DNA of 51,529 nt from the IMG/VR virus record IMGVR_UViG_2617270963_000008, one strand, 5' to 3'. Source of the DNA: a virus (lineage: Duplodnaviria; Heunggongvirae; Uroviricota; Caudoviricetes). Shown one piece after another: positions 30,001 through 36,000 of this stretch. The position numbers are program-made. Position 1 is the stretch's first letter, and the number at the start of each line of letters is the position of its first letter.

Positions 30001-33000
30001 ATTTCTGCATCCGGAGTCGCTGCTGCTCCATACCCAGCGACGCATTCCGGTAATTCTGGTTGGCGTTAAACTCCCTTTCCTGCAGTGCATAATTACGGTC
30101 GTCGACTTTGGCTCTGTAATCAAAGTTCCGCTGATCAACGTCTTTATTATGTTCAAACTGCGACTGTGCAAATTCAAAATCGCGCTCGTTATTTTTCTGT
30201 TGTTGAGCAAGCTGTGCTTCTCGCAAACCAAGTTCCTTACGACGGGTCATTGCCTGGTCAACCGTGCTGAATCCGGCAAGTAAACCCTGTGCAAATCCGC
30301 TCATTCACCACTCCTTAAAACAAAGAACCAGCAATACCACCTATGACAGCACCAATAGCCGCACCGGGGAGACCACCAACAGCAGCGCCCATAGCTGCAC
30401 CCGTACCAATTCCCGTGCCGATATTCTGTTTGTTCTGTGCTTTCTGTTGCGCCGCCATCATCTTGTTTGACGCCTCAATTTCTTCACGTCGTCTGTCTGC
30501 ATCACTTATTCCCTGTAATGCCTCACGCCGTGACTGATTCGCAATATCCAGTAAACCGTATCCCATATTTCCTCCTTAAGCTGACACCAGTTGTCCGCCA
30601 ACACTCAGTTGCTGTCTTGCAGGTGCAGAAGCCCCCGTCAGTATGTTCATCTGACGATCCTGCTCTGCTTCACGGATACCATTTTTCGCGCCAGCAATTG
30701 CCAGGGCATTACGTAACCCCAGCGTATTACTGTTGGGATTATCAGGTCGGTTAACGCCATATCGTGCCATCTGGTTATCCTGCGCCATCTGCGCTGTACG
30801 GAGACTGGAAGTGGCAAGGCCGCCCACCCGGGCAAGCTGCGCATTCATCAGGCTGTTGTTCTCGCCAAGGTCAGCCAGCCTTGCCACGCGGGGCAAATAT
30901 CTGGTTCGCCAGTCGTCGTATTGTTGGCGTGTCAGCGCTGCTGACGTCTGCCAGTCACCCTGTGGGCGGGCTGCTCCTGAATAACCAGCCCTTGCGAGAG
31001 TTTCGTATTTACCGTACTCCATAATCACAGTCTCCAGTTCTGAGCCTGATGCTGAATGGCATTAGCGCCGGTGCCAGGTGTTTTAGCACCGCCACTTCCT
31101 CCGCTACCGCCAGCCTTATGCATCGCATATGCACCAACCGCACCCAGACCAGCGCCAACAAGAGAGGCTCGCCCCTGCTGTTTCGTAAACGCAGCCTGTG
31201 CGTCCGATTTAGCTTTTGCCAGACTGCTGTCTGCCAGCGAGTTAAAACTCTGTAACGCATCCGCCTTTTGACCAGAACCGAGAGCAGCAACATCCTGTAG
31301 CCCGGCAACATACTTATCTGCCTGCGATACCTGCCCCCGTGTGGTTGTGTCAATCTGCCCGGTTACCTGATCACTCTGGTTCGCATTCATTACCGCGTTA
31401 AAGCGACCACTGGACGGGTCAACACCGGACTGAGCAAGATTACCCGCCAGCTCCTTCCGTGCTTCGCCAAACTGTTTCTGATACCCCAGATTTGTGGTGC
31501 CAGCAATATTGTCGTACTGCTGCTCACTGTTAAGGTTATCGACCTTTTCCATGAAGTTATCTTCAGCCGGGCGGAGGATTTTTTGATAATCCTGCCACCC
31601 TTTCCAGGCCACTTCTTCCTGTGCTATTTGCGCTGCTGTTGGTTTTACTTTGGTATCACCACCGCCTTTTTTTCCGCCCATTATGGCTCCTCAGATAACA
31701 AAAAACCCTGCCGGGGCAGGGTCAGAATGTGAATTGCAATTGGTTTACACACGATAATGAATACAGTGGCAGTCAGACCGCTATCCTGAACACCATGAAG
31801 CCATCCTCATCACCCGGCATTCGCTCAAAGCCCAGACGTTTTCCCAGCCGGATAAATCCCCGCCTTGCCGTGTGGAATTCAGCCCAGCGTCCGCCAGCCA
31901 GACGGGTTAATGTCTTCACCTCCGGCAGATAACGCTCAACACCGGCACTCCCCGTACACACACCCAGCAACACCAGAACATAAGGGATACCGTCGTCACT
32001 GAGCACAGAACGCAGCACCAGAAAACCATCCGGTGCCTCAAAGCAAAACGCCTGCTTTTTAAGGCAGGCGTCTTTAACTTCATTCATAAATTCAGGGTTG
32101 CGGGAATTTCTCACAACACGCTGCATATACCGGAGAATTTTGTCGTCCATTCTCTCACCAGAAACGAGTGCCATATCGGCTGAACCTCAGCAACCAGTTG
32201 ACGGGAACTTTCGTCCCCGTCGCGGTTTTCCTACTGCTTACACTGTAAGAACGCCGCAAACTCCGCCCCCCCCACAAATTCAGCCGGAGCTCACACAGCG
32301 AACCGTGTAACATCCAGATGGTGAAGATTACCGTCATACAAATTGTGACGGTGATGAGCGATTTTTGCGACATAGCGCTTGCCTCCTGAGTGGAGAGGCG
32401 CTAACCTTCTACTTGCTTAAGGTATGATGGTTAGGGCCTCGGGTTAAACAAAATGTTTGACTCGGGGCCTTTCCCCACATCAGGCCTTCAGGTTCACCTT
32501 CCAGCCATCAGCCGAAAGGCACCCGCGCATAATCTACGATTTTTGCCCTGCACGGGCAACAAAAAACCCGCCATCACAGCGGGTTATGACATGTTGTCGG
32601 GTATTACTCAGAATTTCAGGCCAATGCCTGCAAATAAACCATCAGTTTTCCAGTCGCCAGAGCCTGAGCTTTCATAAGTGACGTCCATAGTAACACTTTC
32701 ATTGAAGTTAAATTGCGCGCCGACAGACCATGCAATAGACGTTTTTTTGGTGCTGTTACTTTCAGAAAAACTACCGGCACCATGATTAAGATTGTCGTTA
32801 ATTTTCAAGTCAGTGGTGACTTTTGCAACCCCCATACCAGCCATTGCATACACACTGAGGTATTCGTTAAACCGCCACGAAGGACCGGATAGTAGACTCC
32901 AGTAATTAGCCCTGATATCAGTTCTCGCTGAAGCTGCCGGGTTTTTTACCTCTCGTGATGGAGCGGAAGGCTTAACATCAATAAATGCCTGCGCATTAGT

Positions 33001-36000
33001 CATGGAGCGCGCCCATGTAAAAGAGGCTATAACACCCAGTTCATCAGTTATCTCGTAACGATACCTGATGCTCATCCCCTGGGGGCTTTTGGCTGTGCCG
33101 TCATGCCCCCGGGCAATAGCATTTTCGTATTCACCTGATGAATTAAAATGGTTTACGTTTACAACATTCCTGAACGTATCCCGGTTATAAACACCCGCGT
33201 CTCTAACAAAATCCTTCAGCCCGGGGAAGCGTATGTGTGCAAACCCGAGAGATACCGTACTATCGCCTGATGCTGCATTTACCTGTGCAGTTAAGCAACT
33301 CATCACCAGAACTGCACACGCAAAAAATTTCATGATACTTTTCATTTTAAGTATTTCTCTGAATTAAAGGATGCGATGTCTGAAAGGAACGCTTTCGTTT
33401 TACACTATTAAAGTTTTTCTTACGCTAATCATATATTGAGGAACTAATAACCAGAACTTTATCTATATACGGCTTTCGGATATCCCATGTTGCACCACCG
33501 GAATAATGCTCACAGGAATATATTTTATTTCCTGTAGCACCAGTAGATGTGGTGTAAATCGGTCGGTCATAAGGTGTTCGTTTCCAGTTATAATATCCAA
33601 CCAGTGCAGGCATAATTGCGCATGGATATCCAAGATCCTTCTCAAACTTGATATCAACTGGTATTAACTTCGCGTCAAGCAGCATCATTTCGCCATGGTA
33701 AATCATCTCACCCGACGGGTTATACATGGCGATACCATACTCAGAAGGTTGAGTAACCATATTCGCAAAAGCATAAACAGTCGTAACACCGGGATTCGTT
33801 CCCCTGACAATTTGATGAAGCCTTAAGGCATGATATCCATCAATCTGTTCATGCGTGTACATGACATCGGCCTTCTTCTCTGTTCTGATAAAGAAAAAAC
33901 AACTTTTTCCTGACGGAATTGACGTTTTAAAAAAAGCCTTCTCAGTCGCCGGAATAGTTCCCTTATTGATCAGACACTGAGGCGTAAACCCCGGGCTTAT
34001 CCACAAGCTGCCATCTGGTTTCGTAATGCTTAAACCATACATACAACTCACCCCCAGAATGTATAAATATATGACCCCATCCCCTGCTCAAGATTTGACC
34101 ACGTCACCGTATTGCCATTAATGGTTATCTTCGGTACTTTCCGGTCCTTAAATACATTATTCCACGGAAATAATGAACAGACTGCCTGCAATGTTTTCCC
34201 TTCTGGTTTATTCGTATACGTTTTTGATCCCGACTCCGCCGTAAACCTGTCCAGGAAAAATATGGGAGTAAGCACGCCCGTAACATTAACGTTATTTCTG
34301 TTATAAATGGCAAAACCGTATTCCAATACTCACCTCCTGATCAGCGTAATCTGCCTATGCGAACAGCCAGTCGTCCATTCTGATCATAAACCTCAATTTT
34401 ATCATTGCGGATCACCAGTCCTACATTCTGATTAGAGTAACGAATTGTCAGTTGCCCTTGTGACGTAACACTGAAAAGGCCTCCAATATTCAGGTTACCC
34501 TGAGAATCAACCTGAAAGTTTCCGTTCTGAATAACGGCACTCCGGATAACTGGCGAAGTGATACTTCCCCCAGCTTTTACCTCATCCGCCACAACCTTCC
34601 GCGACACCAGTGTTTCAATCACCGCGCCATAAATCATCGCTTTCGGGATCACTACCTTGCCACCTGATACCGCAAACGGATAGGCTGTGTTATCCGGATT
34701 ATTCGGGTCAAAGACAAACAACTGCGACGCAGAAATTGCAACCTGACTTACAGGCCTGCCTTCACTGTCTTTTCCGGCGACAATCCCGATCCCCGCAGTG
34801 ATACCATCAACTCCCGCTTTTTTTGACCACATCGCAAGGAAGGCCTCACCGCCTTCTTTATCCAGTTTAGTGATGCGCTTGTCGACCTCATTAAGCGATT
34901 CACTGGTTGACGAATCCAGTGTGCTAATCCGGGTTTCAATACCAACAACCATTCTTGTCGTTTCTTCCCTGAGAGTCCCTACAACTTCGGTTGTCTTAAT
35001 TGCAGCATCCTTTACAGCCTGCCCCTGCGCGTTTTTTATTTCTTTACGCAGCTCGGACACAACCGGCGACTTTGCAGCCTCATCGCGGATCTGGTCAATG
35101 ATGGCCTTCACGCCGATCTGTGTTTGTGCCTGAGTGCCTTTTTCAGCATTCCATGGACCTTTCACTCCTGCCGCGTTAACAAAACGTATCCAGTAAAATC
35201 CCGACCAGCCAGGGTCAACCGGATCGCCGTAAACCTGCCCCGGCGTCGTGGCAACCAGCACTGCATCAGCAAGGTCATCCTCCGTACCCCGCCAGATTTC
35301 AGTCAGTGAATGTCCGCGATAATTAGGCATATCCCATTCAAGAAGAACCGAGCCAAATCCACCTGTCGCCTTAAAATTCAGCGGTTTTGTGGGAAAATCA
35401 ACAGTCATTAAAGTACTGTCAATCTCAATACCCGGATTCAGTGCATATGAGGCACCACCCTGTGTACGACGTCGGGCAAGTTTAAGGCCAACCAGCTCTT
35501 CACGGGTCACAAAAGCATGACGACCGTCGCCACGCTGCCCGGTGCCAATTTCCATATTTTCCACAACAGCGGATAAATCCTTCCCCGCCCGCCACGGTTT
35601 TTTGCTCATATCGGTAACTCCGACATCGATGTACTCAGGGTTATTCGTTCCACCTGCCCAAATCCGGATACCATCACCTGCCAGTTTTGCCCGGTTGCTG
35701 CCGGAAGTCTCACCACACTTCCCTTAAACGTACCCGGCGCAAAATGAATAACAGGAACATCATCAGCCATAACGGTGATCCCCACCCGCTCAGGTGCTGG
35801 AGATTTCACCCTGATACAGGAAAAAGAGGTTCTTTCAGGCAATGAAAAAATTTTTGAATGCCACCTTATCGTGGACGGCAGAGAGCCCCCGGCAAGCACT
35901 GACATTTTGTCTCCTGTCACCACGCGCATCATATCTTTTGCGAGATCAACCCATGCGCAGTCAAACGGTGTACTGAGATAGCGGATATCCATGTTCACCG

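Follow-up and report, generated by a model that had tools for sequence, protein, structure and literature searches.

lom and a hok/sok-type locus at one seam of the late region of a Stx-type prophage

A stretch of 51,529 nucleotides (nt) from a tailed virus, IMG/VR record IMGVR_UViG_2617270963_000008 (hereafter, the window), carries at about 20.6-51 kb the late region of a short-tailed prophage of the Stx-phage type (Sepvirinae), with its genes on the minus strand. Within this region lies lom, a gene for an outer-membrane protein of the Ail/Lom family, which is followed by an intrinsic terminator, by a spacer, and then by six collinear genes for proteins of 133, 218, 150, 83, 421 and 2783 amino acids (aa). 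A first reading made from the sequence only had taken this terminator as the border between two late transcription units. Its gene map holds: the sizes of the six genes and their coordinates, down to 20619, agree with the list of open reading frames (ORFs), and lom is indeed followed by a strong terminator. That observation is real but incomplete, and a split of the late region is not supported by what is described below. Our own reading, to which we give a probability of about 0.8, is that lom and a hok/sok-type toxin-antitoxin locus in the spacer are inserts in one continuous late operon, that the place where they lie (the seam) is a hotspot for cargo genes, and that the late transcript reads through it under the antiterminator Q in the lytic cycle. 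The features on which this reading is based are as follows, in the direction of late transcription.

33425-34051, minus strand: gene for a 208-aa membrane-associated protein, homologue of Sp5 ORF73 and last gene ahead of the seam (phrog_425, E-value 4.6e-79)
32608-33345, minus strand: lom, 245-aa Ail/Lom-family outer-membrane beta-barrel protein, the first moron (ORF and Pfam)
32559-32585, minus strand: t_lom, intrinsic terminator, hairpin AACCCGCUG-UGA-UGGCGGGUU, then UUUUUU
32531-32559, minus strand: putative hok promoter, -35 TTGCCC (32559-32554), 17-nt spacer, -10 TAGATT (32536-32531), 8/12 matches
32155-32524, minus strand: putative hok mRNA, whose 5' tac element (32524-32508) pairs with its 3' fbi element (32183-32166)
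32379-32476, plus strand: Sok-like antisense RNA gene, -35 TTGCCT (32379-32384), -10 TAACCT (32402-32407)
32155-32373, minus strand: hok ORF, frameshifted in the window (Pfam PF01848, Rfam)
31773-32174, minus strand: 133-aa gene, homologue of Sp5 ORF75 (phrog_610, aligned from residue 9)
32039-32071, minus strand: hairpin and U-tract inside the 133-aa gene, ACGCCUGC-8 nt-GCAGGCGU, then UUUGCUUUG, free energy (dG) -12.7
31698-31723, minus strand: t_133, intrinsic terminator between the 133-aa and 218-aa genes, GACCCUGC-CCCG-GCAGGGUU, then UUUUGUU
29039-31681, minus strand: tightly packed backbone genes for 218, 150, 83 and 421 aa, homologues of Sp5 ORF76-79 (phrog_611, 596, 594, 601)
20619-28970, minus strand: gene for a 2783-aa polyvalent protein, the last of the late operon, homologue of Sp5 ORF80 (phrog_616)

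The lom gene, its terminator and the genes around them

The protein encoded by lom matches Pfam Ail_Lom (PF06316) with 102.8 bits against a cut-off of 23, and OMP_b-brl with 55.9 bits, and its N-terminus MKSIMKFFACAVLVMSCLTAQVNA and C-terminus (...GLKF), as read from the sequence, show a signal peptide and a C-terminal aromatic residue. The hairpin of t_lom (32585-32565, stem of 8-9 bp, dG -12.2 kcal/mol) begins 23 nt past the lom stop codon and is followed by six T residues down to 32559. It is to be noted that a generic terminator scan returned 5 sites in 5 kb where 4.8 are expected from shuffled sequences, so that a single match is not significant by itself; t_lom is kept in all the screened related loci except two (L036 and L053), across all lom alleles. 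The GC content of lom is 45.5%, against 50-55% in most late genes. The allele of the window is 99-100% identical to those of L013, L039 and L046-48 and 64% identical to the phi24B/Sp5-type allele; over all alleles the identity ranges from 64 to 100%, against about 86-100% for the hok, 133-aa and 208-aa genes, and the regions upstream of lom are AT-rich and allele-specific. With its own terminator, its low GC content, its absence from relatives that keep the flanking genes, and an expression uncoupled from induction, lom deserves the name of moron that had been proposed for it, and it is a well-known accessory gene of short-tailed Stx-type prophages.

The lom gene of lambda, which lies downstream of the tail-tip gene J, is the classic moron of a late operon in the sense of the moron concept of Hendrix and co-workers. 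Lambda and the window share an Ail/Lom gene that comes directly behind the genes for tail-tip fibres and belongs to a Q-dependent late operon; unlike lambda, the window has a podovirus backbone, in which the capsid protein is of the N4 type and a giant polyvalent protein is encoded, and a toxin-antitoxin locus stands beside lom, so the two lom genes are related at the family level only. Lambda lom is reported to be expressed in lysogens (cited in PMC4651098, PMC3342100). Much closer are the lom genes of 933W, Sp5 (ORF74/ECs1236), phi24B and the Stx2a prophage of Escherichia coli O104:H4, which are flanked in the same way by a 205- or 208-aa gene and the 133-aa gene and have this terminator and these downstream genes in common with the window. 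They differ from the window in the allele, which in 933W, Sp5 and phi24B is 64% identical in protein to that of the window, and in the hok gene, which is frameshifted in the window. This architecture has already been described for Stx phages, and to that extent our finding restates a known feature and matters little.

Ahead of lom, the 208-aa gene sits in a variable stretch of low GC content (41.6%). Together with a 92-aa gene, it directly precedes lom (33425-34326, minus strand) in what is the part of the late region with the lowest GC content, the same 41.6%; relatives of other genera have other genes in place of these two, and both may also be exchangeable cargo.

Behind lom, the gap of 430 bp that had been pointed out before the next gene is, more exactly, a 433-bp spacer before the next ORF of annotated size (start at 32174). 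It is not empty: it holds the hok/sok-type locus, which is treated in a later section. The 133-aa gene that follows probably starts at the ATG at 32150, because its homologues in Salmonella, Yersinia, Pectobacterium, Brenneria and Chania are 121-125 aa long. The protein is also homologous to the product of gene 58 of a Vibrio phage (E 1e-8), and in a lambda-like siphophage (L078) a homologue comes immediately downstream of gpJ. Its AlphaFold2 (AF2) model, with a predicted confidence (pLDDT) of 75, models as a GNAT-like fold: among the top PDB matches listed, nearly all are GNAT acetyltransferases (E 5e-4, TM score 0.5-0.6), the best being N-terminal acetyltransferases and AtaT/TacT toxins. No match was found for the protein in Pfam or NCBIfam, and the acetyl-CoA motif Q/RxxGxG/A is not recognised in its sequence. 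With terminators on both sides, the 133-aa gene was considered as a third moron; this was rejected, the gene order being conserved in every relative examined, and from its conserved place it is best described as a part of the backbone.

The second of these terminators, t_133, was missed in the sequence-only reading. Its hairpin (31723-31704, dG -14.1) is comparable in strength to that of t_lom and is conserved in 10/10 sequence variants of the spacer from E. coli-phage loci, 41 of the 51 loci being anchorable; relatives of other genera have no spacer at this position.

At the far end of the block, the 2783-aa protein carries the Pfam domains LPD38 (162 bits), LPD5 (147), LPD1 (81) and MuF_C (64), and it has a weak DarB-like match. 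Several LPD domains together with a MuF-type domain make it a polyvalent (LPD/MuF) protein. Since these four domains are the signature of polyvalent proteins that are predicted to be delivered with DNA, an injected role is plausible for it, and even if the protein is injected, this needs no separate operon.

One late operon or two

How does the seam look where lom and hok are absent? In the Vibrio phage 1F273_PE002, homologues of the 567-, 422-, 133-, 218-, 150-, 83- and 421-aa proteins and of the giant protein are encoded in the same order without lom or hok, and 17 distant IMG/VR contigs keep this order; in most of the distant contigs whose gene maps were drawn, the 133-aa homologue abuts or overlaps the 218-aa homologue. 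A Salmonella prophage has hok alone at the seam, with a strong terminator of its own. Prophages of Yersinia, Pectobacterium, Brenneria and Chania have neither: the gaps at the seam are -26, +2 and +4 nt in the first three, and in Chania the 133-aa homologue and the tail-tip gene share an ATGA overlap, so that the flanking genes abut or overlap in 3/4 of these prophages. Because the backbone order is kept without them, and because the lom alleles are variable and of low GC content, lom and hok/sok are regarded as separate insertions at one seam of a single operon. They are not the only guests. In some E. coli loci a gene for a 400-408-aa YadA-like adhesin stands between hok and the 133-aa gene:

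L019, 4194-5420: adhesin-like gene, with YadA_anchor and YadA_head (trimeric autotransporter adhesin)
L053, 4215-5417: adhesin-like gene
L030-L032: adhesin-like gene, also present

Thus, one seam of the late operon repeatedly gathers surface and toxin cargo (lom, hok/sok, the YadA-like adhesin), beside a constrained hairpin that is described below. Elsewhere in the block, an IS21-type insertion sequence (IS; IstB ATPase and transposase) interrupts the 133-aa gene in L009 (3394-5645), and a second cargo site exists between the 421-aa homologue and the giant gene, with extra genes in Yersinia (L073, 8329-9730), there on the opposite strand, and in Pectobacterium (L075, 8319-9774).

Published experiments on sibling phages bear directly on the unity of the operon. 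Tail formation in Sp5, according to in-frame deletions, requires two genes ahead of lom, ORF70 and ORF71, as well as ORF79 and ORF80, which correspond to the 421-aa and giant genes. Deletion of ORF76, the 218-aa homologue, strongly reduced lysogenization. Nine mutants lost their infectivity, and those deleted for lom (ORF74), ORF75, ORF77 or ORF78 do not figure in this group; ORF73 is given as hypothetical and does not count as essential (PMC5155283). In ciprofloxacin-induced EDL933, the terminase, portal and tail genes of 933W go up 22-45 fold and the gene just upstream of lom 32 fold, lom is not differentially expressed, and the homologues of the 133-, 218-, 150-, 83-, 421- and 2783-aa genes go up 11.2, 27, 30.3, 20.4, 17.2 and 20 fold, the last of them reaching 20 fold in RNA and 52 fold in protein at 12 h (PMC11125564). 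The lower value of 11.2 for the 133-aa homologue would agree with a certain basal level of transcription coming from the hok side in uninduced cells. In phi24B, lysogens express lom at a level that induction does not change and the giant ORF is linked to induction (PMC3342100), and RNA-seq agrees as to lom (PMC4651098); the earlier statement that lom is expressed from lysogens is thereby borne out for the phi24B allele. A single operon is favoured because tail-formation genes flank lom on both sides in Sp5, and because in 933W the genes downstream rise like late genes while lom is unchanged.

The following course of events can be postulated. The backbone would consist of genes for an internal virion protein (567 aa), a tail-tip fibre (422 aa), some small variable proteins, the GNAT-like 133-aa protein, the 218-, 150-, 83- and 421-aa proteins and the giant protein. 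In E. coli phages, two independent cassettes would have been inserted between the variable genes and the 133-aa gene: lom with its terminator, and a hok/sok-type locus with a sense promoter right after t_lom and an antisense Sok-like RNA. In a lysogen, lom would be transcribed from a promoter of its own up to t_lom, hok mRNA and Sok-like RNA would be made constitutively, and t_133, possibly with the intragenic hairpin, would keep the moron transcripts out of the structural genes. In the lytic cycle, RNA polymerase modified by Q would come from the promoter pR', pass t_lom, the intragenic hairpin and t_133, and bring the 133-aa-to-giant genes onto the late transcript, whose products would contribute to tail and virion assembly, the giant protein perhaps being delivered with the DNA. 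Late genes of Stx phages are known to be controlled by antitermination at pR' (PMC7547250). Strain 23CRST047 has a near-identical prophage, whose late genes lead from the Q antiterminator through esterase, holin, lysozyme, Rz, terminase, portal, N4-type capsid and tail genes to lom, hok and finally the giant gene, the Q-family antiterminator lying upstream of the lysis and terminase genes. In the window, the late region contains further intergenic terminator-like hairpins on the minus strand at about 41740, after a 129-aa gene downstream of the capsid gene, and at about 50504, upstream of the terminase genes; it follows that terminators within the late operon are not special to lom, and that essential late genes elsewhere already rely on read-through.

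Some points weigh against a single operon with inserts. The read-through of t_lom and t_133 is something we infer from lambdoid biology (pR' and Q) and from tables of fold changes, and the expression and deletion experiments were carried out with lom alleles 64% identical to that of the window. Upstream of lom, neither the consensus scan nor a custom relaxed scan, which accepted sites with at least 8/12 matches, gave a promoter for lom. A short spacer ahead of the 133-aa homologue is met again in distant relatives, with a terminator-like hairpin there in Vibrio-type phages, and, given that hairpin and the conserved one in the 133-aa gene, some transcriptional punctuation at the seam may be ancestral. 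Q and pR' lie outside the window, an IS3-family element breaks into the region ahead of the terminase genes, and the prophage itself may not be inducible.

Could the six genes, then, form a unit of their own? According to the sequence-only reading, t_lom ends the late transcript, the genes from 133 aa to the giant start from a promoter in the spacer, and their products make an injected module distinct from the tail genes. A sigma-70-like promoter is indeed present on the same strand directly downstream of t_lom, the boundary between modules at the seam is conserved, many relatives having a spacer there and the Vibrio-type phages a terminator-like hairpin, and the giant protein has polyvalent domains with its DarB-like match. 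However, no other promoter-like site lies on this strand of the spacer, and this one serves the hok mRNA, which it starts at position 1 of the Rfam match; the 133-aa gene is followed by t_133, and the relaxed scan found no promoter-like site from there to the 218-aa gene. The overlap of the seam genes in Chania and Yersinia speaks in the same direction, and so does the induction of the downstream genes in the manner of late genes, unlike lom, since a constitutive promoter would behave otherwise. In Sp5, ORF79 and ORF80 are needed to make tails. The proposed module retains a plausible injected role for the giant protein, but its separateness from the tail operon is not supported. We regard such a second unit as very improbable.

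A different proposal keeps one late promoter and lets t_lom, the intragenic hairpin and t_133 stop a part of the lytic transcripts, lowering the internal and giant proteins relative to the head and tail-fibre proteins. Three terminator-like hairpins within 900 nt at the head of the block, the constraint on synonymous sites of the intragenic hairpin in seven lineages, and the somewhat lower fold induction in 933W downstream of the seam (11-30 fold) than upstream (22-45 fold) would all agree with attenuation of this sort. Against it, polymerase modified by Q is resistant to intrinsic terminators, as is established for lambda, the difference in fold change is small and could come from differing basal levels, and the intragenic hairpin is absent from distant relatives, and t_133 from relatives of other genera. 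Attenuation in the lytic cycle is thus quite unlikely, and we return to one late operon that is read through at the seam.

The intragenic hairpin deserves a closer look even so. It lies about 80 nt into the 133-aa gene, counted from the ATG at 32150, and was followed in seven lineages: E. coli, Salmonella, Yersinia, Pectobacterium, Brenneria, Chania and the lambda-like siphophage (L071, L073, L075-L078). The stem core GCCTGC/GCAGGC and the following GTTTTG are unchanged in all of them, the T-run is kept and the loop is variable. In a codon alignment of four genera, degenerate codons for the same amino acid are identical at 9/9 positions within the hairpin and at 6/41 elsewhere (Fisher p = 2e-6). 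As the stems are invariant across the lineages, the pairing itself is unproven, and in distant relatives the hairpin is absent. It could act in termination or insulation, bind a protein, or mark a border of recombination. A rather unlikely idea is that the seam is conserved transcriptional punctuation as well, with an intragenic terminator or insulator that travels with the 133-aa gene and, jointly with t_lom and t_133, would silence the giant block in lysogens or dose its lytic expression; if this is true, the late region would, in a limited sense, be expressed as two differently controlled parts.

The hok/sok-type locus and the 24B_1 RNA of phi24B

The ORF that starts at 32373 matches Pfam HOK_GEF (PF01848) with 24.8 bits against a cut-off of 22. 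The Rfam 'sok' (hok-leader) model RF01794 matches over its full length at 32524-32362 with 35.6 bits (E 1e-5), below its gathering score of 59; at gathering thresholds Rfam gives nothing in the region, and the hok-leader match comes in E-value mode only. Matches to the Rfam models Trp_leader, BSnc120 and GlmZ were set aside as chance matches to terminators. In RefSeq and GenBank records of relatives, an intact 46-aa Hok/Gef gene is annotated at this position; the peptide, MSQKSLITVTICMTVIFTIWMLHGSLCE(F/L)RLNLWGAEFAAFLQCKQ, begins with MSQKSLITV, and its best NCBIfam match is HokA, with 40.9 bits, below the curated cut-off. The putative promoter, which begins within the last bases of the T-run of t_lom and stops 6 nt short of position 1 of the Rfam match, is conserved in phi24B with the -10 box TAAATT. 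In its minimum free energy fold, the 370-nt hok RNA has a dG of -156.7 (z -5.6 against shuffles) and is closed by the pairing of its first 7+8 nt with its 3' end (the first 17 nt with 32183-32166). The Salmonella hok locus has the matching pair GGGUGCUUU / AAAGCACCC, with changes on both sides of this end pairing.

Antisense to the leader, a Sok-like RNA is predicted from sequence and fold. Its promoter boxes are 17 nt apart, transcription would start near 32414, and an 18-bp hairpin (32433-32471) is followed by UUUCC; the resulting RNA of about 63 nt, with a 19-nt tail and the 18-bp hairpin, would have the shape of a Sok antitoxin. The promoter scores 7/12, below the 8/12 of the relaxed scan, and it was located by homology with the published boxes of p24B_1. 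No mok frame overlapping hok was found in the window, where the leader has only a 23-codon ORF that ends 36 nt before the hok start and is covered almost exactly by the Sok-like RNA; the Salmonella hok locus does carry an overlapping frame. With the hok/sok system of plasmid R1 and chromosomal hokA-type loci, the locus shares a small Hok/Gef peptide with HokA as best match, a long structured mRNA with paired 5' and 3' ends, and a short leader-encoded antisense RNA with a terminal hairpin. It departs from them in the lack of a mok overlap, in Rfam and NCBIfam scores that stay below curated cut-offs, and in a toxin that is out of frame.

This loss of frame occurs at a tract of eight G residues (G8; 32266-32273): the first 35 aa are those of Hok, and the frame then runs on into a 72-aa ORF. 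By alignment, G8 is found in the window and in L008, G6, with an intact ORF, in O104:H4, and GGGGAG in most phages, and there are also G5 (L051), G7 (L045 and L052) and GGGGGAG (L044). The 46-aa ORF is intact in O104:H4, phi24B and most relatives, and among complete RefSeq genomes the match length in the closest 17/17 is 519 bp, as goes with G6, the tract itself having been checked in one of them. The variants from G5 to G8 are among contigs derived from draft genomes; the G8 tract is either a homopolymer sequencing error of draft genomes or a real slippage (phase variation). Judged from its sequence, the toxin of the window is probably inactive, unless such an error has been carried into the record.

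Sp5, a prophage of this kind, has another hok-family locus, hokW-sokW (Takada et al. 2021, PMC8621323), and the possibility that the spacer locus is hokW-sokW was considered and rejected: HokW, as deduced from primers and translation, has 51 aa and starts with MKQQKAM, in contrast to the MSQKSLITV of the spacer Hok, and the locus of the window is within the late operon. A Hok of the MKQQKAM type lies in the early-right (nin) region of a sibling prophage.

The spacer has a history of its own in phi24B. There, a "microRNA-size" RNA called 24B_1 was placed between lom and vb_24B_43 (residues 45711-45692 of HM208303), with predicted promoter boxes TTGACT and CGCTAACCT and a reported 80-nt hairpin precursor; the antisense 80-nt transcript was detected by reverse-transcription PCR (PMC4426718). 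When HM208303 is aligned with the window, the published boxes coincide with the Sok-like promoter, the 80-nt precursor falls on the Sok-like hairpin, and the 20-mer TAACGTTAAGTTGACTCGGG of 24B_1 makes up the loop of this hairpin and its 3' arm (1693-1712 in L005). Thus, the place of 24B_1 (Nejman-Falenczyk et al. 2015, 2023) is this very spacer, and its strand is the one antisense to the late genes; in the window the hairpin loop and the -35 box differ, and the 20-nt sequence is not identical. The 24B_1 papers treat the RNA as a trans-acting microRNA-like regulator; the two primary papers make no mention of hok or sok, and a review from the same group lists the two separately. That the spacer behind the claimed "first phage microRNA" is a hok/sok-type locus may be of interest to specialists. 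The 189-nt deletion used in those papers extends, judging from the primer sequences, from the middle of the lom terminator to just ahead of the hok start codon. Because half of t_lom goes with it, as do the promoter, leader and ribosome-binding site of hok, the phenotypes of this deletion may need re-reading.

The window and its prophage

Over 2.1 kb around the seam, the window shares 98.5% identity with Escherichia phage Lyz12581Vzw and with many Stx2a-converting phages; over 521 bp around the lom-133 spacer, its identity to the Stx2a prophage of O104:H4 is 99.6%. The IMG/VR contig L008 (51,406 bp) is 100% identical to the window over every protein tested, and the two are probably the same sequence. 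The left part of the window is host DNA (ynfE, ynfF), and both ends carry signals of IS3-family elements in opposite orientation:

61-177, minus strand: ALIL pseudoknot (IS3-family frameshift signal), left end
51418-51529, plus strand: ALIL pseudoknot (IS3-family frameshift signal), right end

The window has the look of a draft contig that broke at repeats, with IS copies at its borders. At the right side, from about 51083, the prophage is interrupted by an IS3-family element ahead of the terminase genes, and near the left end there is a DicF RNA gene (846-897, plus strand). Between the lysis and terminase genes, an ORF at about 49833-50447 on the plus strand runs opposite to the late genes; in sibling genomes the gene at this position is annotated as a lipopolysaccharide (LPS) core heptose(II)-phosphate phosphatase, and it is probably a further moron.

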